Positions 13,844 to 28,334 of a stretch of 30,282 nucleotides of DNA are shown here, piece by piece. The stretch is from a virus (Duplodnaviria > Heunggongvirae > Uroviricota > Caudoviricetes). The stretch lies in the IMG/VR virus record IMGVR_UViG_2671181050_000003. The stretch is one strand, 5' to 3'. Made by a program: the position numbers and the translations under genes. The notes beneath the pieces are model-generated. The model searched no databases. It saw only the letters and a list, made by a program, of their open reading frames with translations, and was not told where the DNA came from. Position 1 is the stretch's first letter; each line of letters starts with the position of its first letter.

Positions 13844-15817
13844 TTATGCTGCTACGGCATTCACACCAACAGTAAGACTTTCAATCAGCACAGGGTAAGT
13901 TGCCGCATTTCCGGTAATATCCGTAATTGCCAGCGCGTTGGCCTCAAAGGCTGCATTCGTCCATCTGGTCAGCGTAAACGGTTTTCCTGCTGCATTATCA
14001 AGCACCGGCGTGACGTTCAGCGAGCCACCACCCGGGAAGCGGAAAGTCAGCGTGTGCCAGTCGTGATCGAACGGACCATAACTACCAAGCCGCTGTGATG
14101 TGGTGTTTGCATGATACATCACATTGATGTTTGTTTTATCAGTCTGCAGATAGAAGGCCGCAATATAACCCTCCTCTGATTCCGCTCCCGGCCATCCACT
14201 ACCGCGCCAGTAAATACCCGCAGAATATTGATTTGCAGAAGCATTGAGAGATACATCATCGGGGATTTTAAAGCGCAGCGTGATTTCACCGCCGTTATCG
14301 AACAGCTCCTTCCCCTTACCGGCATCAATTGCGTGCGATACTTTCCAGGTCTTTTTCTGTGCAAGACCATTTTCTGGTTTTTCAAGACGAAGGGCTTTTT
14401 TACCTGAACCACTGTCACTGACCAGCGTGTTTTTGACATCTGTCAGCGTCCAGCCCTGCGAAGCCAGATCGGCATTTTCCGCATTCGCATCATAAGCCAG
14501 CACTGACTGTATCTTTGTCGGGACAACGGATTCAGGCTGAGTATCGCCACTCTCCTGTGCTGGTTGCGATACGCCTCCGCCTGAAGAAACCGCGGCTTTT
14601 GTCACTTTCCCGGAAACAAAATCTGCCACTCTGCCCACATGCAGAAGAATGGCTGTTGCCAGACGGTCGGAAATAATTCCGCGACGCGCCCATGAACCAA
14701 AGTGGGTTTTACGATCGGATGTTGTCCAGCTCTTCGCATCCGTTCGTCCACCGGAACCATAATACCCGATAGCCGGAATATCCGGGTCTTCTGACGGTTC
14801 ATTGGTCCCGACTTTCTGACCATTGTCATCCATCATAAACGGCACAAAGAAGATATTTTTACCGGCTTTGGTTTTGTATGCGCCATAGACGGCATCGTAT
14901 TGCGCTGAATACGTCTCCTTCCAGTAGTACGTCGTGTCACCACAAATCCAGGGCACCAGAGAAGGAGAAGCACCAGCGCACTGACCGGATACTCCCGCCA
15001 GGTCAGAACGGTATTTTTCCACCATGGCATCAAACATGGCGGGCTGACTGGCGTACGCTCCCTGTTTTAAATCAAACTCGCCCTGCATCCAGACAACACA
15101 AAGCAGTATGTTTTTGGGGTTTGCCTTCAGCGCGGCCTGAGTGCGTGTCAGCAGGTCTTTATACAACGGCTTATCAACGCCCCATCGTTCAGATTTATCC
15201 GACGCTCCTGAACTTTCACTGAACGTTCCGTCAGCACCGGCTGTAAACGCAGAGCCACCACGACAGCACGGCACTAACAAAATACCCGCATTTTCCGGCA
15301 TAAAGGGCAACAGCTTTTTGGCAATATGCAATCCCTGTCCGACACACCCATACTGCTCTGCGCTGGCTTTCGGATGAGAAAAACGGCTCAAATCCTGCAC
15401 ATCATGCAGGCAGTGGTCCGCCGGAATGATGTCGTTATATGCACAGGCCGCACCACCCGGTGTCACCGTACTGCGACGCGCCAGCTGTTTAATACGCGGG
15501 TCCGGACGGTCATATGTCTCCGGCAGCGGCAGACCTTCACCATACGCCATGCCGTTTGACTGTCCGGCCAGCGCAATGACAAAGTAATATTCTGGTTCAA
15601 CAACAACAGTCCGGGTACCATCTCCCCCCGGTGAAACTACCGGAGAGGTCATATCCCCTTCAGCGACTATAGCCTGGATAAATTCAGCACCATAACCCGC
15701 GTTTGAGATAATCGGACTACCATAGGGTTGCCAGCCTTCCTTCAGTTTTTGCGTCAGTTTTCCTGCGAGGTCTGACGGCGATGATGCCCTGACCACGTCA
15801 TAGTGTTTAAATGCCAT
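13844..15817 (-). CDS. nanS: Prophage sialate O-acetylesterase, NanS-p-like (SASA/SGNH hydrolase, about 658 aa)
   Basis: GQSN(G)M esterase motif (ALAGQSNGMAYG) and a DUF1737-like N-terminus (MAFKHYDVV...); start taken at the internal ATG with a GGGAGG ribosome-binding site; located between the late regulatory region and the holin, as in EHEC lambdoid prophages. Confidence 0.75.
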   Translation of the reverse strand: MAFKHYDVVRASSPSDLAGKLTQKLKEGWQPYGSPIISNAGYGAEFIQAIVAEGDMTSPVVSPGGDGTRTVVVEPEYYFVIALAGQSNGMAYGEGLPLPETYDRPDPRIKQLARRSTVTPGGAACAYNDIIPADHCLHDVQDLSRFSHPKASAEQYGCVGQGLHIAKKLLPFMPENAGILLVPCCRGGSAFTAGADGTFSESSGASDKSERWGVDKPLYKDLLTRTQAALKANPKNILLCVVWMQGEFDLKQGAYASQPAMFDAMVEKYRSDLAGVSGQCAGASPSLVPWICGDTTYYWKETYSAQYDAVYGAYKTKAGKNIFFVPFMMDDNGQKVGTNEPSEDPDIPAIGYYGSGGRTDAKSWTTSDRKTHFGSWARRGIISDRLATAILLHVGRVADFVSGKVTKAAVSSGGGVSQPAQESGDTQPESVVPTKIQSVLAYDANAENADLASQGWTLTDVKNTLVSDSGSGKKALRLEKPENGLAQKKTWKVSHAIDAGKGKELFDNGGEITLRFKIPDDVSLNASANQYSAGIYWRGSGWPGAESEEGYIAAFYLQTDKTNINVMYHANTTSQRLGSYGPFDHDWHTLTFRFPGGGSLNVTPVLDNAAGKPFTLTRWTNAAFEANALAITDITGNAATYPVLIESLTVGVNAVAA

Positions 15818-16018
15818 TATTCCTCCCGGCAGGGATAGTGTATGCAATCAAGATAAGGTGCGGGCTGACGTCAGTCATGGACAAGGGTTCAGAAACAGGA
15901 GGATGACTACAGCCCGCAATACGAAAAAGACCATACAGTTGCGCAGAGTGATTACTATCAGGTATTATTCGCCAGCTGAAAATTGATCACTTCACGTTTT
16001 GTTGTTTATTCCTTGCCA

Positions 16019-16047: not shown

Positions 16048-16054
16048 ATCCAAC

Positions 16055-16300
16055 AAGAAAGCCCCTCCGGAGAGGGGCTGGAGAGTAGCGCTATGTACCG
16101 TTCATGCATGGTGCAGGGTGCCTCCCGGTGAGTTCAGTATCAGCACCTGAACCCGCACCAGAAAGGATAAGGGGTGTGACCAAACACCTGTCGCTGATAT
16201 GCCCCTCCGCACAGGGGGATTCACCATGCCATATTTTTTTAACAAACTTCCCGCTGGCCAGACAATAATCGCCAGCCTGAATTGTGAGTAACGTGGCATT
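16055..16300 (-). repeat. Repeat unit A of an ORF-free tandem family, ending in a hairpin terminator (16061..16079)
   Basis: Shares conserved blocks with unit B (aaagcccctccggagaggggctg, catggtgc.agggtgcctcccggt, gggggattcacca, atttttaacaaa, gccagacaat, aattgtgag). Confidence 0.6.
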
Positions 16301-16324: not shown

Positions 16325-16534
16325 TAAAAAGGCCCGCCGGAGCGAGCCTGGAAGGATAGCGGTCATGTGATGCCGGTTTCCCGGTAACTCAGCATCGGTA
16401 TCTGAGTCAACGTTTTCTCTACTGGGTCATTTCCGATACGTTCCGCCTTCCGGCAGACTTTCATCACGTCAGAAAATATAGCACCCTGAGTAACAGGACA
16501 GTACTCAGAATTCAGGAAACTGTGACACATCCTG
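16325..16534 (-). repeat. Diverged middle unit of the same family, with its own hairpin terminator (16330..16349)
   Basis: Opens with aaaggcccgccggagcgagcctgg...tagcggtcatg, parallel to the start of units A and B. Confidence 0.4.
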
Positions 16535-16790
16535 CACAGAAAAGCCCCTCCGGAGAGGGGCTGAAGTATAGCCTAATTTCTGTCTGTCGCATGGTGCCAG
16601 GTGCCTCCCGGTAAATTCAGCCTGGCTACTGAATTTGCATGTTCGCTGGATCATACACTTTGCCAGATGCCCCGCCGCTGAGGGGGATTCACCACGCGAT
16701 GCAATTTTTAACAAATTCTCCGGCAGCCAGACAATCATCAAGCTGTGGAATTGTGAGGTATTTAAAAATTTCGCAGCCTCTTGCCACCCG
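16535..16790 (-). repeat. Repeat unit B, ending in a hairpin terminator (16544..16561 plus T-run)
   Basis: See unit A; perfect GCCCCTC/GAGGGGC stem followed by TTTTCTGTG on the minus strand. Confidence 0.6.
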
Positions 16791-18124: not shown

Positions 18125-18317
18125 CAGTAGCTTTCCCCTTATCCCATCCACGATGAACCATAAGGACACCGTTGACGACGGCGTGCCGTTTGCCTTCTTT
18201 ATCACCGACATATTTTCTGACCGTAGCACGATTACAGTTCAGTTTTCGTGAAACTTCAGTCATATTGCCTCGTGCCTGGATAAGCAATTCCGGTATTGTT
18301 TGAATTGTGGCGTTCAT
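18117..18317 (-). CDS. ninH: NinH-like small DNA-binding protein (66 aa)
   Basis: Translation MNATIQTIPELLIQARGNMTEVSRKLNCNRATVRKYVGDKEGKRHAVVNGVLMVHRGW matches my recollection of lambda NinH along its length. Confidence 0.8.
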   Translation of the reverse strand: MNATIQTIPELLIQARGNMTEVSRKLNCNRATVRKYVGDKEGKRHAVVNGVLMVHRGWDKGKATDA

Positions 18318-18676
18318 ATGTTCTCCAGTTCGGTGATTTTTATCCCCACTCTACCGCCAAGCACTTTCACGCCGCGAATTACGCGAATGTCATCGAATTG
18401 CACGTCGTCTTCCGCAAATCCGGCGTGGATAAGAGAGTCGAGTAAACCTTTCAGGATGTTATCGAGGTCGCGACGGCGGGAATCTGGTGGTTCAGCAATA
18501 ATTGTGATGCGAAGTCGTGATTTAGTGAAAATGTCTAATCTGAGTTGCCGGATGATTTGCTGTACGTCTTTTCGGTATTTCTGGCCTTTATCGCTGATGT
18601 AGTACTGGCTTCCCCGTCTTCGCCAGTAGGTATTCACCGTCGGCGGCCAGGGAAGCACAAACTCATATTCATTCAT
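18314..18676 (-). CDS. rusA: RusA-family Holliday junction resolvase (120 aa)
   Basis: LPWPP motif and DSRRRDLDN catalytic-region motif; position in the nin region. Confidence 0.85.
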   Translation of the reverse strand: MNEYEFVLPWPPTVNTYWRRRGSQYYISDKGQKYRKDVQQIIRQLRLDIFTKSRLRITIIAEPPDSRRRDLDNILKGLLDSLIHAGFAEDDVQFDDIRVIRGVKVLGGRVGIKITELENI

Positions 18677-18966
18677 GACTTAATCTTCCCCTCCTTCAGC
18701 AATATCGCCAGCGTCCTGATCACGCCTTCCAGGTGGTAAAGTCTGGCGTCGTTGTTGTCGAGAATGCGAGTACGGCGATCGATTTCATTATGGCAGTCAC
18801 TACAGGCCCATGCAGCCAACAGATCATCTGGCTTTGTTCCCGTTCCGCAAATTCCAGCCATTCGGTAATGCGCCAGAACTGTAGTTTCAGGGTTGCCATT
18901 GCATACGCCATAAATCCGTACCTGGCATTCTCTGCCGCGCGCTTCTTTGCGTAGGTTTGTCATCAT
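18673..18966 (-). CDS. DUF1364 / YbcO-like nin-region protein
   Basis: MTNLRKEARGRECQVR...CNGNPET...CSDCH Cys-rich pattern; start taken at the internal Met pair preceded by GAGGAA; the track's longer start at 19002 would overlap ninE. Confidence 0.6.
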   Translation of the reverse strand: MMTNLRKEARGRECQVRIYGVCNGNPETTVLAHYRMAGICGTGTKPDDLLAAWACSDCHNEIDRRTRILDNNDARLYHLEGVIRTLAILLKEGKIKS

Positions 18967-18986
18967 CTTATTCCTCATGCAGTAGG

Positions 18987-19178
18987 CTATCCGGAGTGAC
19001 AATTAAATCTTGCTCGACGCCTTAGCCACCGGATATCCCACAGGTGAGCCGTATAGTTGAAGGTTTTAACATCAGATTCTTTGGGGACTGGCCTGGGTTT
19101 ATTTCGGGAGCGTTTGGTTGGAAGGTAATTGCAGTTTTCACAGACGATATCGGTGATGCTTCGTCGCTGTCGTCTCAT
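18987..19178 (-). CDS. ninE: NinE-like protein (63 aa)
   Basis: [30 protein letters not shown]...[18 protein letters not shown] matches my recollection of NinE; start overlaps the ninB stop. Confidence 0.6.
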
Positions 19179-19585
19179 TCGTACCTCCTGTCGGTAAATC
19201 TGACACCCTGATCCACGGCCCAGGATGTTGTGTACTCAATCAGGCTTGCCATACGCTTCACGCTCATTTGCGCACTGCTTTCGCGGATATTGACGTATTC
19301 ACCTTCAAGACCTGGCAAAACATCAGCTTCCTGTTTTGTCGCCACGGCATGACCGCTGATTAACAAAACTTTCCACTGTTCTGGTTTTAGCCACCTGCCG
19401 CACCACTTAACCTGGCGGGATATATCAGCGACCATCGCGTGAAATTTTGCATTTTGAGCGAGATTACGCTTGTAATCGGTGATACGGATCGTAACGGGTT
19501 TGTCTTTATCGAGAGTTGTTGCAAGGATGGCGTTAATGGCGAATTGTTGCTGCTGCTTACTTCGGAGGAAGATAGTCTGGTTCAT
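19175..19585 (-). CDS. ninB: NinB-like recombination protein (136 aa)
   Basis: Similarity to lambda NinB (LDQNRK... versus [25 protein letters not shown]); synteny ninB-ninE. Confidence 0.75.
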
Positions 19586-19639
19586 TATTCCCTCTCACTG
19601 GATTTTCCCAACAAAAAAGGAGCCGAAGCTCCTTTAGTT

Positions 19640-20341
19640 TCAGAATTCAAATTGTCTTGCCCGCAGGCTTTTCAGCATTGGCATGGCCCGCTGGATAACG
19701 GAACTTGACATGTCGAGACGTGTTACCTCCCTTAGTAGCGCGTCTCTGTTCTTCGTCACCATGTAGATGGTCTCAAACGCAATGTCATACAGCTTGTTCG
19801 TGTATGAGGAGTTCAGCTCTTTCATTATGGGGTACAGCTGCTTGCTAAGGTCCTGGGCTTTTTCCATCCAGAGTTGCATGTAGCAAAGGAGGATGATTTC
19901 CTCGGCTGTGAATTGTGGCTGAATCTGCGGCTGCTGTTCGGTTGGTGCTGTTTTTCCCTGGCTGAAATAGCAGTCTTCCAGTTTTTCGAACACTTCCCAC
20001 GCCTGATCGGTTTCGAGCATTTTTGCGTGACGGGCTGCGCCGCGTTCTGTCCAGAGGATGAGGGAGCGAACATTGCGGGCGATTTTCACAGAGTAACTTT
20101 CTGTTACCTCGCGGCTAACAGACTCGCTTAAAGATAGTCTGTGCTTAAACTCACGTAGTTCATTCCCTTCCAACTTAAAGAAATGTTTTCCCTGTACAAA
20201 TCGCGCAGAGTTACGGGAAAAATTCATTTTTATATTGACTGTTTCAGTGCCATACAATTGCGCCAATAATTCTGTAGTAATTACGGGGATCTGGTTGTAG
20301 GCAATTGGGGAAAGAGTTTCAACGGAAATTTGAGTCGCCAT
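19640..20341 (-). CDS. Phage antirepressor / Roi-like DNA-binding protein (233 aa)
   Basis: N-terminal ORF6N/KilA-N-like segment (ELLAQLYGTE...NFSRNSARFVQGKHFFKLEG) plus a C-terminal helical domain; position between the replication and nin genes. Confidence 0.6.
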   Translation of the reverse strand: MATQISVETLSPIAYNQIPVITTELLAQLYGTETVNIKMNFSRNSARFVQGKHFFKLEGNELREFKHRLSLSESVSREVTESYSVKIARNVRSLILWTERGAARHAKMLETDQAWEVFEKLEDCYFSQGKTAPTEQQPQIQPQFTAEEIILLCYMQLWMEKAQDLSKQLYPIMKELNSSYTNKLYDIAFETIYMVTKNRDALLREVTRLDMSSSVIQRAMPMLKSLRARQFEF

Positions 20342-20609
20342 GACAACGCCCTCTGGTTGATGAATTTAACTATCACCACCGTCAGGTGCAAATCTTTGGG
20401 TGGTGAGACGTACAGGGTTTGCACTACCGGATCAACCAACCGGCGAGCCTTTCGGCTCCCCCATACGCCCCACCATAATTCAGATGTGCGTGTGCTTACG
20501 ACAACAAAAAACACGCTCGCGGCGTGTGTCTGTCGCGGTTGAATATCCGGGGTGCAAATCCCGACGCCAGATTTTGCTGGCGTGCGAAGAATATAATCCC
20601 GGATATGTG

Positions 20610-20638
20610 TTGTCGTCAACATACCTTGAATGTATATA
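20610..20638 (+). promoter_or_regulatory. Candidate sigma-70 promoter (TTGTCG, 17-nt spacer, TATATA) for the toxin-antitoxin operon
   Basis: Hexamers read directly; the predicted start site is only a few nt before the first candidate ATG, giving a leaderless or short-leader mRNA. Confidence 0.4.
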
Positions 20639-20649
20639 ACAAATTTGTT

Positions 20650-20991
20650 ATGTTTACTCTCATGAACTACATTATCGAATACTACAGTGACGAGGTTGAA
20701 GCTGAGATCCTTTCTCTTCCTGAGACCTTACAAGCCCGGTACATTCGGTACACGGAGAAAATGCGTATTTACGGAGCTAATCTTGGTTCCCCGCATACAG
20801 AGGCATTTGGCGACGGTTTGTTTGAAATCCGCCTTAAGGGCTCGGAAGGCATAGGGCGTGTTTTTTACTGCACGCTAAAAGGAAAGCGAATCATTATGTT
20901 GCATAGCTTTGTAAAGAAAACGCAAAAAACTCCACCTGCCGAGCTTAGAAAAGCTGAAACCAGAATGAAGGAGGTTAAGCATGACTGGTAA
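20650..20991 (+). CDS. RelE/ParE-superfamily toxin, Gp49-like / HigB-like (about 110 aa)
   Basis: MNYIIEYY...LPETLQARYIRYTEKMRIYGANLGSPH...FEIRLKG...RVFYCTLKGKRIIMLHSFVKKTQKTP fits my recollection of the Gp49-like toxin family; 3' end overlaps the antitoxin start by 11 nt; start is 20650 or 20662 (no ribosome-binding site at either). Confidence 0.7.
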   Translation: MFTLMNYIIEYYSDEVEAEILSLPETLQARYIRYTEKMRIYGANLGSPHTEAFGDGLFEIRLKGSEGIGRVFYCTLKGKRIIMLHSFVKKTQKTPPAELRKAETRMKEVKHDW

Positions 20992-21289
20992 ACGTACCCC
21001 ACCTACCATGACACACGATGAAATGGTAGAAAAAATGTTGTCTAACCCCGCAGTAAAAGCAGAATACGACGCCATCGCCGATGAATTCGCACTACTTGAT
21101 GAAATGCTGGCAGCACGAAAAGAAGCTGGCTTAACCCAGGCTGAAGTTGCTGAACGTATGGGAACAAAAGCGACTGCGATAACCAGAATGGAAAGCAATC
21201 TTGCATCAGGTACAAGCGGCCCATCATTTGCCACACTGAAAAAATTCGCCCGTGCTACAGGGAAAAAACTCCAGATCCGCTTCGTTTAA
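20981..21289 (+). CDS. XRE-family helix-turn-helix antitoxin, HigA-like (102 aa)
   Basis: AAGGAGG ribosome-binding site; helix-turn-helix GLTQAEVAERMGTKATAITRMES; toxin-first operon order as in higBA. Confidence 0.75.
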   Translation: MTGKRTPPTMTHDEMVEKMLSNPAVKAEYDAIADEFALLDEMLAARKEAGLTQAEVAERMGTKATAITRMESNLASGTSGPSFATLKKFARATGKKLQIRFV

Positions 21290-21301
21290 CTCTCCACTAC
21301 C

Positions 21302-21326
21302 GCGCCGTCATTCTGGCGGCGCTTTA
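21302..21326 (+). terminator. Weak hairpin after the antitoxin gene
   Basis: GCGCCG/CGGCGC stem with a 9-nt loop followed by TTTA; poor U-tract. Confidence 0.3.
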
Positions 21327-21343
21327 CCCCAGAGAAATATCAA

Positions 21344-21589
21344 TCACCGGATTACCACATCCCACTCCGGCTCCTGCCATCTCAAATCCGGTGAATCATT
21401 TCTCTCAGGAATAACCATTACGTCCTTTTCCCTTCGCTCCCTTTCTATCGCCATCACAGCCAATGCTGCAACCATGATGTATTTTTGTTCGTCGGTTCCT
21501 GTTTCATAACGACGCATGAGGGTAAACTCGGGGCGATCAGTAACCTCAATGATTTCGTTAATTTCTTTAATTTCGCGAGGAATATCCAT
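21344..21589 (-). CDS. Hypothetical protein (81 aa)
   Basis: ATG preceded by AAAGGAGA; fills the gap between the antitoxin and the zinc-ribbon gene; its start overlaps the plus-strand start at a CCATGG palindrome. Confidence 0.35.
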   Translation of the reverse strand: MDIPREIKEINEIIEVTDRPEFTLMRRYETGTDEQKYIMVAALAVMAIERERREKDVMVIPERNDSPDLRWQEPEWDVVIR

Positions 21590-22262
21590 GGGTTTAGTCT
21601 CCTTTGATATCACATGCCCGCACTGTTTAAAAGAGCGAGCTGTTATTGAGGCATTTGCCGAAAAACAAATTGAAAAAACACCTTTTTTTAACGTCGCTTT
21701 TGTATGCAGAAGTTGTCATCGAGGAGGTGTTGCTATTGTTGAAATCCCATCAGACCACTATCACGGTCCCATGGCGGAAAGCCAGAAAAAAGACCTCGAT
21801 ATTCTGATTTCAGGAAATAGCCAGTACCGTTTCCGCAAGATCTATCCTGTGGTCAAAAAAATTACCGCACCAGAATATACGCCCCCGGTTGCAGACCGTA
21901 CTTTTGTTGAGGCAAAAGAGGATTTACAGAGGAGGCGGTACGACACAGTGGTTATTCTTTGTCGCAGAGTCCTCGATATCTCCACGAAAAAACTGCTCGG
22001 CGATGAAGCAGGAAAAGAATCGCTGTCGCAACGTATTCAGATGATTTACAAAAAAGGCCTGATCACTGAACAGATGAAGGAATGGGCTCATATTGTACGA
22101 ATTGATGCCAATAAAGCAGTTCATACAGATGAAGTTTTCACACCAATTGAGGCAAGCCAGATCCTGAGTTTTACCGAAATGTTTTTAGTCTACGCCTTCA
22201 CTCTGCCTGCAATGGTGGAAGCCAGACGTGAACAAAAAAGATCAGATTCAGCCTCTATATGA
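21588..22262 (+). CDS. Zinc-ribbon protein with a DUF4145-like C-terminal helical domain (224 aa); candidate defense protein
   Basis: Start taken at MGLVSFDITCPHC with a GAGGAA ribosome-binding site. CPHC...CRSC four-Cys pattern at the N-terminus; C-terminal region (...IVRIDANKAVHTDEVFTPIEASQIL...) resembles DUF4145 as I recall it; opposite strand to flanking phage genes. Confidence 0.55.
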   Translation: MGLVSFDITCPHCLKERAVIEAFAEKQIEKTPFFNVAFVCRSCHRGGVAIVEIPSDHYHGPMAESQKKDLDILISGNSQYRFRKIYPVVKKITAPEYTPPVADRTFVEAKEDLQRRRYDTVVILCRRVLDISTKKLLGDEAGKESLSQRIQMIYKKGLITEQMKEWAHIVRIDANKAVHTDEVFTPIEASQILSFTEMFLVYAFTLPAMVEARREQKRSDSASI

Positions 22263-22294
22263 ATCACTTTTCTGAACACGTAAGCCCCCGTCAT

Positions 22295-22726
22295 TCACGA
22301 CGGGGAGAACATCAATCCCTCTGCACTCCCTCGCCAGAATGCCAGCACACGCTGCATCGTTTCGCTGTTACGGCACTCGCGACAAATTGTGTTGTAGCGT
22401 CTGTCGTAGCGCCGTATTTCCCCATCTGGTAATGCCCGGATAAGGTCTGGATCAACGACAACCGGTTTCTTCGACTTTGCCCTTGAGAGTTTTTTGCGGG
22501 CATTTTGCCAGTCCTTACGAGCCTGTTCAGACGGGAATACTCCGTAACCGGAATTGTAAACATCACCACTGGCGGCCAGCTCCATGCATAAACGACCGAC
22601 AGACGCATGACTGACACCAATTTCATCCGATAACTGCCGAATCGTGCCTCGTCCGTTAAGGCGTACGAATTCCACGATCAGCCCCTTAATTTTTTCCCGC
22701 TCTTCTGGTGTAAATGCTCTTGTCAT
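22295..22726 (-). CDS. Hypothetical DNA-binding protein, winged-helix-like (143 aa)
   Basis: GGAGGTG ribosome-binding site before the ATG (MTRAFTPEE...); the track's first codon is a GTG; early-right operon position after the replication genes. Confidence 0.5.
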   Translation of the reverse strand: MTRAFTPEEREKIKGLIVEFVRLNGRGTIRQLSDEIGVSHASVGRLCMELAASGDVYNSGYGVFPSEQARKDWQNARKKLSRAKSKKPVVVDPDLIRALPDGEIRRYDRRYNTICRECRNSETMQRVLAFWRGSAEGLMFSPS

Positions 22727-22741
22727 AAGCACCTCCGGAGA

Positions 22742-23512
22742 TCACTTTGTTGTCGGTGAATGAACCGGAATATCAGCAATCGAACTGAAAATATCCCGGT
22801 GTTTATTCAGCTCCCGCAGCGCGGCGCAGACTCGCTCCCACTTCTGAACATCACTTTTCGCCCTGCGCAGCGCCAGGTTTGCCCTGCGCAGGGACGGAAA
22901 AATCAGCTCATCTGCTTGCGTTTCGGTAAACGATGGCAACGACTGCACAATGTCCGCCACAGTTTCTGTTTTAATTTCTTCCTGTGTTGCGGCTTCCCGG
23001 ACTGGTAACGCAGCACCTGCTGGCTGAGGAAAGGCCTTACCATCACTTTCCGTTACCAGCGCGGCTTTCGGCTCTGCTGGTAAATTATCGCCCGGCATGC
23101 AGTAACGAAATTTACCGTTCTGATTAACGCGTGCCAGCCGCCCCGTTGCGGTTACCACCGCCAGCGTGGAAGCAACCTTGCGAGTACTGACACCGAACTT
23201 ACCCGCCAGTTCCTCACACGTTTTAGCCCCATCCTGACCGATAAACTCAATCATCATGTCTGCGGTAACTTTTGGAGCAACCTCTTCGGTTACCACATCC
23301 GGCGCTTCAGGTTGTAGTGCCTGCCCTTCGGTTACCCCGGCTTCACCTTCGACAGCCAGAAACCAGGTGTGACCCGTTTTATCAACAACGCCATTTTTTT
23401 TGAGCTCCCACAGTTCGTTGAGAACTTCTTCACGGCTGATATCAAGCCGCGCCGCCAGTTCAACAGAATTGGCTTTTCCCATCGCTTTCAGTGCATGCAA
23501 TACGGTTTCCAT
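22742..23512 (-). CDS. Hypothetical prophage protein with N-terminal winged-helix-like region (256 aa)
   Basis: Follows the DnaC-like gene in the same operon; family not firmly recognised. Confidence 0.5.
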
Positions 23513-23537: not shown

Positions 23538-24278
23538 TCACATACCCTGACGTCCAACGTTTGACCGCCAGCTCTCCCAGTTAAAATTCACCCAACGACC
23601 ACCATTCATGGTCATACGGTCCATCACCCGATCTCCGAGGAGTGTGCTCATCGCTGCGTGATTCAGGTTCGTCAGGATCCCGACCGTGCGCAGTGATGCC
23701 GTTCTGCGGTCGACGATCTGGTTCAGTATGACCTGCTCGTTGCGCGTATCCCGCTGCATGCCAATTTCATCAAGGACCAGAAGGTCAACTCCACAAAGCT
23801 CCTGTAAAAATTTTTCCCCGGACTGGCCGTTGTTGTAGCCGTCATGCAACACGCTCATGACATCGGACACGGTGACGATAATCACGCTTCTCCCCTTCGC
23901 CATCAGCCGATTGCCAATCGCTGCTGCCAGGTGATTTTTACCGGTACCAGGTTTACCGCTGAACACGAAGTTTGTACACCCGGTCATCAATTCATCGGCA
24001 ATGGATTTCGCCTGGCTCAGAGCATGGCGCTGACCGTCGTTCTGCACCCGGTAGTTCCCGAATGAGCACTTCCTGTGAAGCGGCTGGATGCCCGCACGGT
24101 TCAGGATTTTTTCAACCCGCACCTGATGATTCAGGCGGTTAATTTCCTCGCTGCGCTTACGGCCCTCAGCCAGTTGCCATTCCCGCCATTCGTCGGTCGT
24201 CCGGAACGGTGGAACCGCCCCCTGTGGTGCAAGTCTGCGAATACGTTCAAGAACCCCAACTGCCGCAATGTTTTTCAT
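23538..24278 (-). CDS. DnaC-like helicase loader (IstB-type AAA+ ATPase, 246 aa)
   Basis: Walker A GKPGTGKNHLAAA and Walker B LLVLDEIG; follows the replication initiator. Confidence 0.85.
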   Translation of the reverse strand: MKNIAAVGVLERIRRLAPQGAVPPFRTTDEWREWQLAEGRKRSEEINRLNHQVRVEKILNRAGIQPLHRKCSFGNYRVQNDGQRHALSQAKSIADELMTGCTNFVFSGKPGTGKNHLAAAIGNRLMAKGRSVIIVTVSDVMSVLHDGYNNGQSGEKFLQELCGVDLLVLDEIGMQRDTRNEQVILNQIVDRRTASLRTVGILTNLNHAAMSTLLGDRVMDRMTMNGGRWVNFNWESWRSNVGRQGM

Positions 24279-24284
24279 GACACG

Positions 24285-25247
24285 TCACCCCCTGAATCCC
24301 GGCGGTATTTCAGTGTCCGGTTCAGAAATGTGATTCACGCAACGCTGCGCAGGCGAACGCCCCAGGCGGATAACCAGTTCATCCCATTTTTCCCGGAGTT
24401 TTGCCGGACTCATGATGTTTTTTACCCAGAACGAATCCCGCTGGAGACGCCCAAACATTTCACAAATTTGTCTGTGAGTTCTGCCATCCAGCATCCGCAT
24501 TGTGCGAACGTCATTGGCCCATGCTGTCCAGTTGGGTTCTTTCGGTCTAGTGATCTCGCCATCATAGCTGGCCGCCTGCTCGTAAAGACTCACGATTCGT
24601 CCCCAGATCCACTGTGCGCACACCAAATCTTCCTGACTTCCCCACTGGCGTTTTTTCGCACTGAACACAACCGCGTCAGGGTGTCGGGTTAAAAAATCCT
24701 GTTCAGCCGTCTGCGGGTCCGGTTGCGAAGCGTCCGGACAAGAAGATCTTTTATCTGACGGATCAGGTTTTAATACTGACGGATCGGGGTCAATCATCGC
24801 CCCCCTAATCGGCAGTTTTTTATCAACAGTTGATCCATCAAAATTTGACGGGTCAACCGTTGAGGGGTCAATATTTGACGGGTCAACTGTTAACGGGTCA
24901 TTTTTTGCCGGGCTAATTTTTCTTTTCGGTTTATATGACTCACGCGCCGCCGCCGCAGCTGCTTCGAGTTTTTCCACATTAAGCCGATAGATATTGCTTA
25001 CATTACGCCCACCGACCTTACGCTCTTCCTTCGTCAGCCAGCCCTCTTTCGCCAGTTCTGCAATAGCCGATTTCACTGTGGATTCACTTCTTGCACCGAT
25101 CTGACGCCGGATAGTTTCAATGGCAGGCCATGACACGCCCTCGTCATTGCTGTAGTCTGCAAGACGGGCCATAACCGCCACCCTGGATAAGATCATGCCG
25201 GTGAAGGCGCACCCTTCCCAGACAAGACCATGAAGCTTGCTGCTCAT
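24285..25247 (-). CDS. Replication initiation protein (O-like), carrying the iteron array internally
   Basis: N-terminal helix-turn-helix region (WPAIETIRRQIGARSESTVKSAIAELAKEGWL), a repeat-encoded linker and a C-terminal domain; start taken at the ATG (MSSKLHG...) because the track's first codon is a GTG. Confidence 0.75.
   Translation of the reverse strand: MSSKLHGLVWEGCAFTGMILSRVAVMARLADYSNDEGVSWPAIETIRRQIGARSESTVKSAIAELAKEGWLTKEERKVGGRNVSNIYRLNVEKLEAAAAAARESYKPKRKISPAKNDPLTVDPSNIDPSTVDPSNFDGSTVDKKLPIRGAMIDPDPSVLKPDPSDKRSSCPDASQPDPQTAEQDFLTRHPDAVVFSAKKRQWGSQEDLVCAQWIWGRIVSLYEQAASYDGEITRPKEPNWTAWANDVRTMRMLDGRTHRQICEMFGRLQRDSFWVKNIMSPAKLREKWDELVIRLGRSPAQRCVNHISEPDTEIPPGFRG
24783..24910. repeat. 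Iteron-like direct repeats (GACGGGTCAA-type, at least four copies) inside the initiator gene, followed by an AT-rich stretch; candidate origin
   Basis: Read directly: cggggtcaat, gacgggtcaa, gaggggtcaat, gacgggtcaa, aacgggtcat, then ttttttgccgggctaatttttcttttcggtttatat; translated as DPLTVDPSNIDPSTVDPSNFDGSTVD. Confidence 0.55.
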
Positions 25248-25269
25248 AAAACCCCCGAACACCGTGCTT

Positions 25270-25695
25270 TTAGTGCATCACCACAGCATTCCCTGCCGGG
25301 CCGCCGCGATTCATCTGGTCATACAAAACAACCGCTGACGCAACAAAATCATCGACATCCTTCACCAGCCGATCCCTCCGTTCGACGATCTCACGGTAAT
25401 ATTCAGAACTGTGGCTGCGCATACGGGCCACTAGCAAAGGCGGCATCGCCTTTTCGATCGCCGGTAACAGAGCCTGCATTTTTTCAACAGCATCAGGGGT
25501 GTCTTTATCCAGCCAACGGAAAATTTTCTGGGTATTACGGGCCAGGGCTTCCGGATGGCTGTCGTCATACAGTTCCGGGAACGTCATTCCCAGCTCGAAA
25601 TACGCTTTGGTAATTTTCGCAGCCGGCACTTTTTCGCCGTCCGGATGCGCCCAGACATTCATCGCCATGCGGATGTGTTCATGCTTGATTTTCAT
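25270..25695 (-). CDS. YdaT-like protein (141 aa)
   Basis: N-terminus MKIKHEHI matches my recollection of the Rac prophage YdaT; AGGAG ribosome-binding site; immediately downstream of the Cro-like gene. Confidence 0.6.
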   Translation of the reverse strand: MKIKHEHIRMAMNVWAHPDGEKVPAAKITKAYFELGMTFPELYDDSHPEALARNTQKIFRWLDKDTPDAVEKMQALLPAIEKAMPPLLVARMRSHSSEYYREIVERRDRLVKDVDDFVASAVVLYDQMNRGGPAGNAVVMH

Positions 25696-25960
25696 GAATC
25701 AAGCTCCTAGAAAGTGGTTGTGTTAACGTTTTGGTATCTTCCAGCTCGGGCCAAATATTCATCCAATCAAAAGGCCTTAGTTGCTGACGTGTAACTTCAC
25801 CATTACTGGCTCGCTCAATAAGGACACATAACGATGCCCCTAACACTTGACCTTTACTCAATGCCTTTCTTAGATAACCGATGCTGGTACCACACTCGCA
25901 TGCAAACATACGCTGTTCATCTGACGAAAGAGAATTGAGAAATATTCTTAATTCTTCCAT
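25679..25960 (-). CDS. Cro-like / YdaS-family helix-turn-helix regulator (93 aa)
   Basis: AAGGAG ribosome-binding site; divergent from the repressor gene across an operator-rich intergenic region. Confidence 0.6.
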   Translation of the reverse strand: MEELRIFLNSLSSDEQRMFACECGTSIGYLRKALSKGQVLGASLCVLIERASNGEVTRQQLRPFDWMNIWPELEDTKTLTQPLSRSLIHENQA

Positions 25961-25989: not shown

Positions 25990-26067
25990 TACCTACAGGT
26001 AAACAAAAGTCAATACCCACAGGTTGTTTACCTTGCGGTAATCGCATCTATTATTTACCTATGGACA
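25990..26067. promoter_or_regulatory. Operator cluster: four TACC-N4-GGTA sites in the cro/repressor intergenic region (OR-like)
   Basis: tacctacaggta (25990), tacccacaggtt (26014), taccttgcggta (26029), tacctatggac (26056, overlapping the repressor ATG). Confidence 0.5.
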
Positions 26068-26480
26068 AATATGAATTTAGACGACAGCAACTCATCAAAA
26101 TTCGTGATGAGAAATGCGATGGTAAAGCGGTTAACGTGGCCAGAAAGATCGGGCGCGAGCCTTCTTATGTATCAAGAATGTTGTACCCAGAGGGGAAAAA
26201 GGGAAAAAAACGGATCGCTGATGATATGGTGGAGATTATCGAAGAGTCCTTTGGGTTACCCCGGGGATGGATGGATGGTATCGTTTCATCATCAACGAAC
26301 ACAGCCTCCAGTTATGAAACAAGGGTTCTAACGCCACGACAACGTATTTTTTTAGATCTCTTAGACGAACTGCCAGAAAGTGAAGCGGATAAATTATTAA
26401 AAACTCTTGAAGAGAAAAAACAGTATTACAATATGATCTACGAAGAAATCCGTAAAAAGAAAGCACAAAACACATCATAG
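26061..26480 (+). CDS. Prophage repressor (CI-like helix-turn-helix protein, 139 aa)
   Basis: Helix-turn-helix GKAVNVARKIGREPSYVSRM; divergent from the Cro-like gene; no ribosome-binding site before the ATG; operators on both sides. Confidence 0.65.
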   Translation: MDKYEFRRQQLIKIRDEKCDGKAVNVARKIGREPSYVSRMLYPEGKKGKKRIADDMVEIIEESFGLPRGWMDGIVSSSTNTASSYETRVLTPRQRIFLDLLDELPESEADKLLKTLEEKKQYYNMIYEEIRKKKAQNTS

Positions 26481-28276: not shown

Positions 28277-28334
28277 TTTCTGGTGACATTTGGCGGTATC
28301 AGTTTTACTCCGTGACTGCTCTGCCGCCCTTTTT
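28277..28334 (+). ncRNA. dicF: DicF-like small RNA
   Basis: tttctggtgacatttggcggtatcagttttactccgtgactgctctgccgcccttttt matches the E. coli DicF sequence as I recall it with about one substitution; followed by dicB-like and ydfD-like genes as in Qin. Confidence 0.65.

Follow-up and report, generated by a model that had tools for sequence, protein, structure and literature searches.

Toxins of the Tad group (COG4679/DUF891, including gp49 of phage N15) are RelE-like proteins partnered by Xre antitoxins (PMC2701414). Modules with a GP49-domain HigB are toxin-first in all studied cases, and in Acinetobacter baumannii the promoter is repressed by HigA, for which HigB serves as corepressor (PMC5906591). 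The modules pAMI2 tad-ata, N15 gp49/gp48 and SXT s045/s044 stabilise their replicons (Dziewit et al. 2007, as cited in PMC2701414 and PMC5906591). The family thus has experimentally studied members from N15, SXT, pAMI2, A. baumannii, M. tuberculosis and S. pneumoniae. Here, a gene pair at positions 20,610 to 21,326 of a 30,282-nucleotide stretch of viral DNA (IMG/VR record IMGVR_UViG_2671181050_000003; the whole stretch is called the window) was analysed. The pair is very probably a type II toxin-antitoxin cassette of the Gp49/Tad-Ata ("reverse-order HigBA") kind, inserted on the opposite strand in the nin region of a lambda-like (Stx-phage-like) prophage.

Near-identical pairs are annotated as "toxin HigB / antitoxin HigA" in phage PhiR5_2 and as "type II toxin-antitoxin system RelE/ParE family toxin" plus "helix-turn-helix domain-containing protein" in RefSeq. 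Given these annotated copies and the characterised members of the family, the pair is therefore already known and ordinary; as one more copy of a widespread annotated Gp49/Xre module, it has little weight alone. The modest additions are a conserved leaderless promoter/operator design and an exchange slot behind PisrK, the promoter of the neighbouring isrK-C4-antirepressor unit. Neither was described in the literature searched. The features of the cassette are listed below; L005 (Shigella phage POCJ13) and L006 are two of the relatives compared.

20626-20631, plus strand: candidate -35 element TTGAAT, conserved in L005 and L006
20636-20651: perfect 16-bp palindrome ATAACAAATTTGTTAT, candidate antitoxin operator, spanning the promoter spacer and the start of the -10 element
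20646-20648, plus strand: extended -10 element TGn
20649-20654, plus strand: candidate -10 element TATGTT, 17 nt after TTGAAT
20655-20661, plus strand: 7-nt spacer from the -10 element to the start codon
20662, plus strand: toxin start ATG
20662-20991, plus strand: toxin of 109 amino acids, Gp49/Tad/HigB-like protein (PF05973) with a predicted RelE fold
20968-20974, plus strand: Shine-Dalgarno AAGGAGG for the antitoxin, within the toxin 3' end, 6 nt before ATG 20981
20981-21289, plus strand: Xre/HTH_3 antitoxin of 102 amino acids, overlapping the toxin gene by 11 nt
21302-21322, plus strand: GC-rich hairpin after the antitoxin stop, with a 9-bp stem (21302-21310/21314-21322) and the loop UUC

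The toxin matched the Pfam family Gp49 (PF05973) with E 5.2e-27 and 94.2 bits (cut-off 23.9) over profile positions 2-90 of 90. PF05973 was the sole Pfam family at E <= 0.01; the canonical HigB profile PF05015 gave no match to the toxin, and neither Pfam nor the PDB sequence search gave a match to ParE. gp49 of phage N15, after which the Pfam family is named, is 42.9% identical to the toxin over residues 15-105 (E 4e-15). The toxin also matched phrog_2523 over its full length (E 2.6e-42), a family that PHROGs labels "unknown function". Its sole solved sequence relative was S. pneumoniae HigB (6AF3 chain A, E 7e-5). The AlphaFold2 model, built with 34 homologues, had a pLDDT of 85.7 and a pTM of 0.79, and its layout was a strand, two helices, a four-stranded sheet and a C-terminal helix. 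When the model was compared with the PDB by Foldseek, S. pneumoniae HigB ranked first (TM 0.74-0.77, E about 1e-6), followed by M. tuberculosis HigB1/Rv1955, including the ribosome-bound 7NBU (TM 0.74-0.77). The E values of the HigB/HigB1 matches ranged from 1e-5 to 8e-7; RelE, YafQ, YoeB and others ranked after them, and the fold match to P. vulgaris HigB was weak (E 0.065-0.16, TM ~0.5). The model indicated that the toxin has a RelE-superfamily fold. The original prediction of a Gp49/HigB-like RelE-fold toxin was thus borne out, with PF05973 far above its cut-off.

The toxin family comprised 2354 homologue clusters (E <= 1e-3), with lengths mostly of 107-111 amino acids. Residues H45, R57, K59, R66, H81, K85 and K86 were invariant in 34 aligned toxins; an invariant His/Arg/Lys set is typical of RelE-type RNases. 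The ratio of nonsynonymous to synonymous substitution (dN/dS) against two diverged E. coli/Shigella alleles was 0.13-0.14, which indicates that the toxin gene is under purifying selection. Two in-frame starts upstream of ATG 20662, GTG 20524 (155 amino acids) and ATG 20650 (113 amino acids), were rejected because of the lengths of the homologues, because the codons between 20650 and 20662 are not conserved, and because transcription is predicted to begin downstream of both. In the inducible phage PhiR5_2, the toxin start ATG is replaced by ATA, which is the sole difference across the 721-bp cassette; a truncated "HigB" is therefore annotated in GenBank. The PhiR5_2 allele may be toxin-null with the antitoxin retained.

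The antitoxin matched Pfam HTH_3 with E 3.6e-11 and 43 bits (cut-off 23), and its Xre/HTH_3 DNA-binding domain was at residues ~44-98. It matched phrog_1373 with E 2.7e-36, and its best solved relative was S. pneumoniae HigA (6AF3 chain B, E 1.4e-3). The toxin and the antitoxin therefore each match one chain of the same solved HigBA complex, 6AF3. The overlapping XRE antitoxin of the original prediction was found as described, and its Shine-Dalgarno AAGGAGG was conserved in POCJ13 and L006. The pairing was further examined in 80 distant loci, taken from one-genome-per-species contigs that ranged from Sodalis and Edwardsiella to Gallionella, Nitrospira and Acidobacteriota. An antitoxin homologue lay directly downstream of the toxin on the same strand in 79 of the 80 loci, and the single exception was cut by the contig end. 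Judged at the sequence level, the pair is a type II Gp49/Xre module.

Sequences upstream of the toxin in the window and in the 80 distant loci (81 in total) were aligned, and palindrome-anchored columns were taken from 67 of them. The motif TAAC-N6-GTTA was present in these 67 of the 81 loci, and it ended 10-11 nt before the toxin start in 58 of the 67. The core of the conserved palindrome was TAACA-N4-TGTTA, placed over the spacer and the -10 element, and the hosts bearing it ranged from Sodalis and Edwardsiella to Nitrospira and Gallionella. The consensus of the 67 loci was TTG (73-77%), 17 nt, and TAttaT (first T 100%, A 100%, final T 97%), with ATG or GTG 6-7 nt after the -10 hexamer. A Shine-Dalgarno-like 4-mer at -18 to -4 of the toxin start was found in 0 of the 81 loci. 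The toxin start was GTG in 34 of the 81 homologues, at the predicted transcription start. The comparison supported a sigma-70-type promoter of the cassette's own, TTGAAT-17-(TGn)TATGTT. The -10 element is only 7 nt from the ATG, and the bicistronic toxin-first messenger RNA (mRNA) would therefore be leaderless or nearly so. The palindrome ATAACAAATTTGTTAT is the natural candidate for the antitoxin operator. No RNA structure above chance was found at the toxin 5' end (20640-20700, z +0.42).

A different promoter, TTGTCG (20610-15)-17-TATATA (20633-38), had been proposed in the original prediction. The hexamers and the 17-nt spacer are present, yet they are not conserved: the hexamers are 24 nt apart in POCJ13 and 20 nt apart in E. 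coli FDAARGOS_943, and TATATA is changed to CATATA in both. Since the spacing varies in these two diverged copies of the cassette, this promoter was not supported. The leaderless or short-leader toxin mRNA that had been proposed with it held up in the comparison of loci (67/81), with TTGAAT-17-TATGTT as the promoter instead.

The control region (TTG-17-TAnnnT, TAACA-N4-TGTTA, and a start without Shine-Dalgarno) was conserved across Proteobacteria, Nitrospirota and Acidobacteriota, and it offers a testable model for low toxin translation in a toxin-first operon. Should the mRNAs prove truly leaderless, initiation at GUG without a leader would be a common feature of this toxin family outside enterobacteria.

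A hairpin downstream of the pair had also been predicted, and it was present. The segment 21287-21335 folded at -19.1 kcal/mol with a z of -4.6, and 0 of 200 shuffles were as stable. The hairpin marks the 3' end and the right junction of the cassette. It may stabilise the 3' end of the transcript or act as a terminator, at best a weak intrinsic one.

The boundaries of the cassette were determined by comparison with relatives. By blastn, homology to Shigella phage POCJ13 started at 20602, and homology to E. coli FDAARGOS_943 stopped at 21322. Prophages with other cassettes (including L003/L004) shared the left flank to 20621 and the right flank from 21296. These limits place the cassette at about 20602/20621 to 21296/21322, nearly equal to the predicted 20610-21326. 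The left end has the following feature.

20602-20621: left junction of 20 bp with the inverted repeat TGTTG-TCGT-CAACA (20608-20621), common to prophages with this or other cassettes

The left junction was 100% conserved in L001 (PhiR5_2), L002 and L005, and 95% in L006. The inverted repeat TGTTGTCGTCAACA (20608-21) was considered as a second antitoxin operator and rejected, because its half-sites are arranged the other way round from those of the main palindrome. The repeat is also kept in prophages whose cassettes are unrelated, which assigns it to the junction and to the isrK promoter. The GC content was 43-45% in the cassette and 47-52% in the flanks, which is only a weak signal.

E. coli G1/2 and phage PhiR5_2 were collinear with the window over 19000-23000 at 95-96% identity, and the cassette itself was identical at 720 of 721 positions (99.86%). 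Copies covering >=80% of the 1.1-kb query were found in ~23 of 5426 complete E. coli genomes and in 5 phage records. In other prophages the same slot held other genes. A PF05015-type RelE/ParE-family toxin and a HigA-family antitoxin were found in E. coli 2014C-3338, and a ParD antitoxin, a hypothetical protein and an orphan HigA in 2013C-4282 (Stx1a). The Stx2a phage L004, one of 20 listed with the same match pattern, had a cassette like that of 2013C-4282 by flank homology, and other O157 records had ParD and a hypothetical protein under the match. O104:H4 HUSEC2011 carried a RelE fragment and a helix-turn-helix (HTH) protein, followed by Doc and HokD. The ParD/HigA-type slots also contained a 71-bp remnant of the antitoxin 3' end (21221-21291, 95.8%), which points to repeated replacement of cassettes. 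No empty site was found among the slots compared. As judged from these alignments, E. coli Stx-like prophages carry at least four kinds of toxin-antitoxin cassette in the slot behind the isrK-C4-antirepressor unit. The pair is thus a discrete insert that is replaced among collinear phages, in keeping with the moron insertion of the original prediction. The literature searched contained no paper on a nin-region toxin-antitoxin slot. Such a variable slot is relevant to prophage stability and to Stx phage typing.

The L005/L006 alleles showed a mosaic of identity. The toxin and the first ~20 antitoxin codons (~65 nt, 20981-21045) were 69-77% identical, while the rest of the antitoxin including the HTH (21046-21289) was 90-96% identical. 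This step suggests recombination that swapped the toxin with the antitoxin N-terminus, one DNA-binding domain and operator being kept. The divergence fits a toxin-binding antitoxin N-terminus that co-varies with its toxin.

A molecular mechanism can be proposed with high confidence from the homology and the conserved control region: an autorepressed toxin-first operon with a toxin lacking a Shine-Dalgarno, an Xre antitoxin and a RelE-type mRNase. The toxin would be translated from a leaderless or near-leaderless bicistronic mRNA, and the antitoxin from AAGGAGG within the toxin 3' end. This strong Shine-Dalgarno should favour the antitoxin over the toxin on each transcript. By analogy with relatives, an Xre antitoxin dimer, with the toxin as corepressor, would bind the palindrome and autorepress the operon, and the N-terminal part of the antitoxin would neutralise the toxin. 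The fold match to 7NBU and the invariant residues suggest that the free toxin would cleave mRNA in a ribosome-dependent way, as M. tuberculosis HigB1 does. The role is the least certain part. By analogy, it is most likely addiction-type persistence, which would stabilise the cassette and the prophage segment that carries it. Abortive infection directed against other phages may be an additional effect. A prophage ParE module has been proposed to protect its region from rearrangement (PMC8630535).

Several points weigh against this interpretation. Toxicity, neutralisation, RNase activity, operator binding and the transcription start are all things that we infer, and the addiction role is drawn by analogy from relatives at 43% identity or lower. 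In NCBIfam, the toxin gave sub-threshold matches only, with TIGR02683 at 21.9 bits against a cut-off of 62.85. The ATA codon of PhiR5_2 indicates that the toxin may be dispensable or inactivated in some carriers. The GTG starts sit less comfortably with strictly leaderless translation in enterobacteria, and a very short leader is equally possible. The tail after the hairpin stem is UUU followed by A, and the hairpin at 21302-21322 was not called in the terminator scan, because the scan needs at least five T's in the tail.

An anti-phage function (abortive infection or superinfection exclusion) may be considered as the main function instead. An infecting phage would deplete the labile antitoxin or stop host transcription, and the mRNase would be freed. 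A prophage accessory slot that exchanges toxin-antitoxin cassettes is a pattern typical of defence hot spots, and the validated defence system PD-lambda-2 includes a HigB-like toxin (bioRxiv 10.1101/2022.05.12.491691). The toxin core also matched the C-terminal part of PADLOC NsnC (E 4.9e-8); however, this match covered 51 residues (positions 233-283 of 293), and there was no full-length match in PADLOC-DB 2.0, where the antitoxin had generic HTH matches only (capH, RmrA; E 2.5e-5 or weaker). The family occurs in many non-prophage chromosomal contexts across phyla, and the literature searched held no phage-plating data for this toxin subfamily. Defence as the main function is a possibility worth keeping in mind, though on balance an unlikely one.

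The unit next to the cassette bears on a second explanation. It has the following features, all outside the cassette's own genes.

20590-20619, minus strand: isrK-C4-antirepressor promoter TTGACG-18-TATATT (PisrK), promoter scan 10/12, outside the cassette
20506-20583, minus strand: isrK-like small RNA (sRNA), Rfam RF01394, 75.4 bits (gathering 50)
20527-20511 plus T-run, minus strand: canonical isrK terminator, from the terminator scan
20396-20480, minus strand: C4-like antisense RNA, Rfam RF01695, 74.4 bits (gathering 45)

The 300 bp of "intergenic" DNA that separate the cassette from the antirepressor contain the isrK and C4 RNAs, which lead into the antirepressor. isrK is an Hfq-binding sRNA. 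The predicted start of PisrK coincided with position 1 of the isrK match (20583). In Gifsy-1, the isrK promoter of PisrK-isrK-orf45-anrP drives the antirepressor (PMC4825925), and the isrK/C4/antirepressor lead-in found here is similar to that of Gifsy-1 isrK-orf45-anrP and of P1 immI. With its own promoter and an isrK/C4 leader, the antirepressor is therefore a regulated unit of its own, not a mere passenger of the pR operon.

The -35 element of PisrK (20614-19) and that of the cassette (20626-31) are back-to-back, 6 bp apart. The cassette might thus be coupled to the isrK-C4-antirepressor switch, promoter occupancy or antisense read-through from pR during induction modulating the other unit. 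Every cassette in the slot abuts the same junction inside PisrK, and POCJ13 keeps a 20-bp PisrK fragment with the cassette even without isrK. These points concern position alone, however; the operator lies ~17 bp beyond the PisrK -35, and the toxin-antitoxin family has the same promoter/operator in dozens of unrelated contexts without isrK. No evidence of a functional role of the promoter proximity was found. Such coupling is considered improbable. Slightly more doubtful still is the broader proposal that the slot behind PisrK is a dedicated toxin-antitoxin exchange site in Stx-like lambdoid prophages, with the resident promoter physically coupled to the induction switch. If it were true, expression of the antirepressor would be skewed by the state of the toxin-antitoxin module, or antisense silencing of the cassette by antiterminated pR read-through during induction would set the toxin free; the module would then be tied to the lysis-lysogeny decision.

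Decay or domestication of the module, with the HTH protein only a phage regulator and the upstream open reading frame (ORF) inert, would agree with the lost ATG in PhiR5_2, with the shortened toxin ORF annotated in the POCJ13 and O170:H18 records, and with the orphan antitoxins and the antitoxin remnant in the same slot of other prophages. The toxin ORF of the window is intact and full length, retains all residues invariant in the aligned homologues, and belongs to a gene with the low dN/dS given above. This explanation is very unlikely for the copy studied here. A gyrase poison of the ParE type, in place of an mRNA endonuclease, would agree with the generic RefSeq name "RelE/ParE family toxin" and with the presence of ParE2 chains among the fold matches. 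Against it, the ParE2 matches were far weaker (E ~0.1, TM 0.40-0.48) than those to HigB/HigB1, the only sequence-level PDB match was HigB, and the invariant His/Arg/Lys set is as in RelE-type RNases; this explanation is barely credible.

An addiction-type toxin-antitoxin cassette is the preferred reading. Read on its minus strand, the window corresponds to the early-right/nin region of a prophage of the lambda-like, Stx-phage-like kind. The flanking genes were as follows.

26061-26480, plus strand: repressor side
25679-25960, minus strand: cro-like
25270-25695, minus strand: cII-like
24285-25262, minus strand: O-like
23538-24278, minus strand: DnaC/IstB-like
22742-23512, minus strand: DUF1627
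22295-22732, minus strand: DUF977
21588-22262, plus strand: DUF4145 gene (phrog_1305)
21344-21589, minus strand: hypothetical ORF of 81 amino acids (phrog_8371)
19640-20341, minus strand: antirepressor (ORF6N + P22_AR_C)
19175-19585, minus strand: NinB
18673-19002, minus strand: YbcO
18314-18676, minus strand: RusA

The two overlapping plus-strand ORFs of the toxin and the antitoxin are situated between DUF977 and the antirepressor. The gene map and the annotated relatives confirmed the predicted opposite-strand placement in the early-right/nin region. The pair had been described as lying on the plus strand among genes that are all minus-strand. This description was correct for the pair, the antirepressor and the replication genes; the DUF4145 gene (21588-22262), which also lies between the pair and the replication genes, is on the plus strand.

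The DUF4145 gene and the 81-amino-acid ORF are annotated as divergent in relatives. Their start codons share the tetranucleotide CATG (21587-21590), so that there is no space between the genes for promoters; one of them may be no real gene, or each promoter sits within the other gene. The DUF4145 protein had a weak match to PADLOC PD-T7-4 (E 0.002). Elsewhere in the window, two tandem copies of the STnc100 sRNA (16049-16258 and 16534-16727, minus strand, 130 and 139 bits) sit between the late-regulator genes and a SASA-family esterase gene (13844-15847), and a DicF antisense RNA (28278-28329, plus strand, 77 bits) is on the left-operon side. No transfer RNA genes were found in the whole window.

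Compared with the known systems, canonical HigBA (Rts1, E. coli K-12; PF05015-type) is likewise toxin-first with an Xre-HTH antitoxin and a toxin of RelE-superfamily fold, but the toxin here has no PF05015 match and its fold match to P. vulgaris HigB is weak. M. tuberculosis HigB1 (Rv1955; 7AWK, ribosome-bound 7NBU) has the same RelE-type fold and is the model for ribosome-dependent mRNA cleavage. It belongs to a three-part toxin-antitoxin-chaperone system, whereas the locus here has no SecB-like chaperone gene, and the identity is ~18-19%. S. pneumoniae HigBA (6AF3/6AF4) is the best solved relative of both partners (fold TM 0.74-0.77); it differs in its Gram-positive host and chromosomal locus, with 19-20% identity over the structural alignment.

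HigBA2 of the A. baumannii plasmid pAB120 has a GP49-domain toxin, the reverse order and an Xre antitoxin, as found here; unlike the pair here, it is plasmid-borne, and its own identity to Tad-type toxins is ~20% (PMC5906591). The HigBA2 paper describes no leaderless start and no such palindrome. The Tad-Ata modules of pAMI2, N15 and SXT share with the pair the toxin family COG4679/DUF891/PF05973, the toxin-first order, the Xre-HTH antitoxin, and a temperate phage or mobile element as carrier. The pair belongs to another subfamily (phrog_2523), at most 43% identical, and it lies in the nin region of an integrated lambdoid prophage instead of a plasmid-prophage or an integrative and conjugative element; the stabilising activity was shown for those modules.

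relBE-hokD of the K-12 Qin prophage is also a type II module in the early region of a lambdoid prophage, with families that differ from those of the pair here. The paaR2-paaA2-parE2 module of CP-933P occupies the early region of a lambdoid prophage as well and has been proposed to stabilise that region (PMC8630535). Its toxin and antitoxin are of other families, and it lies in the immunity region with a separate repressor, whereas the cassette described here carries its own HTH antitoxin.

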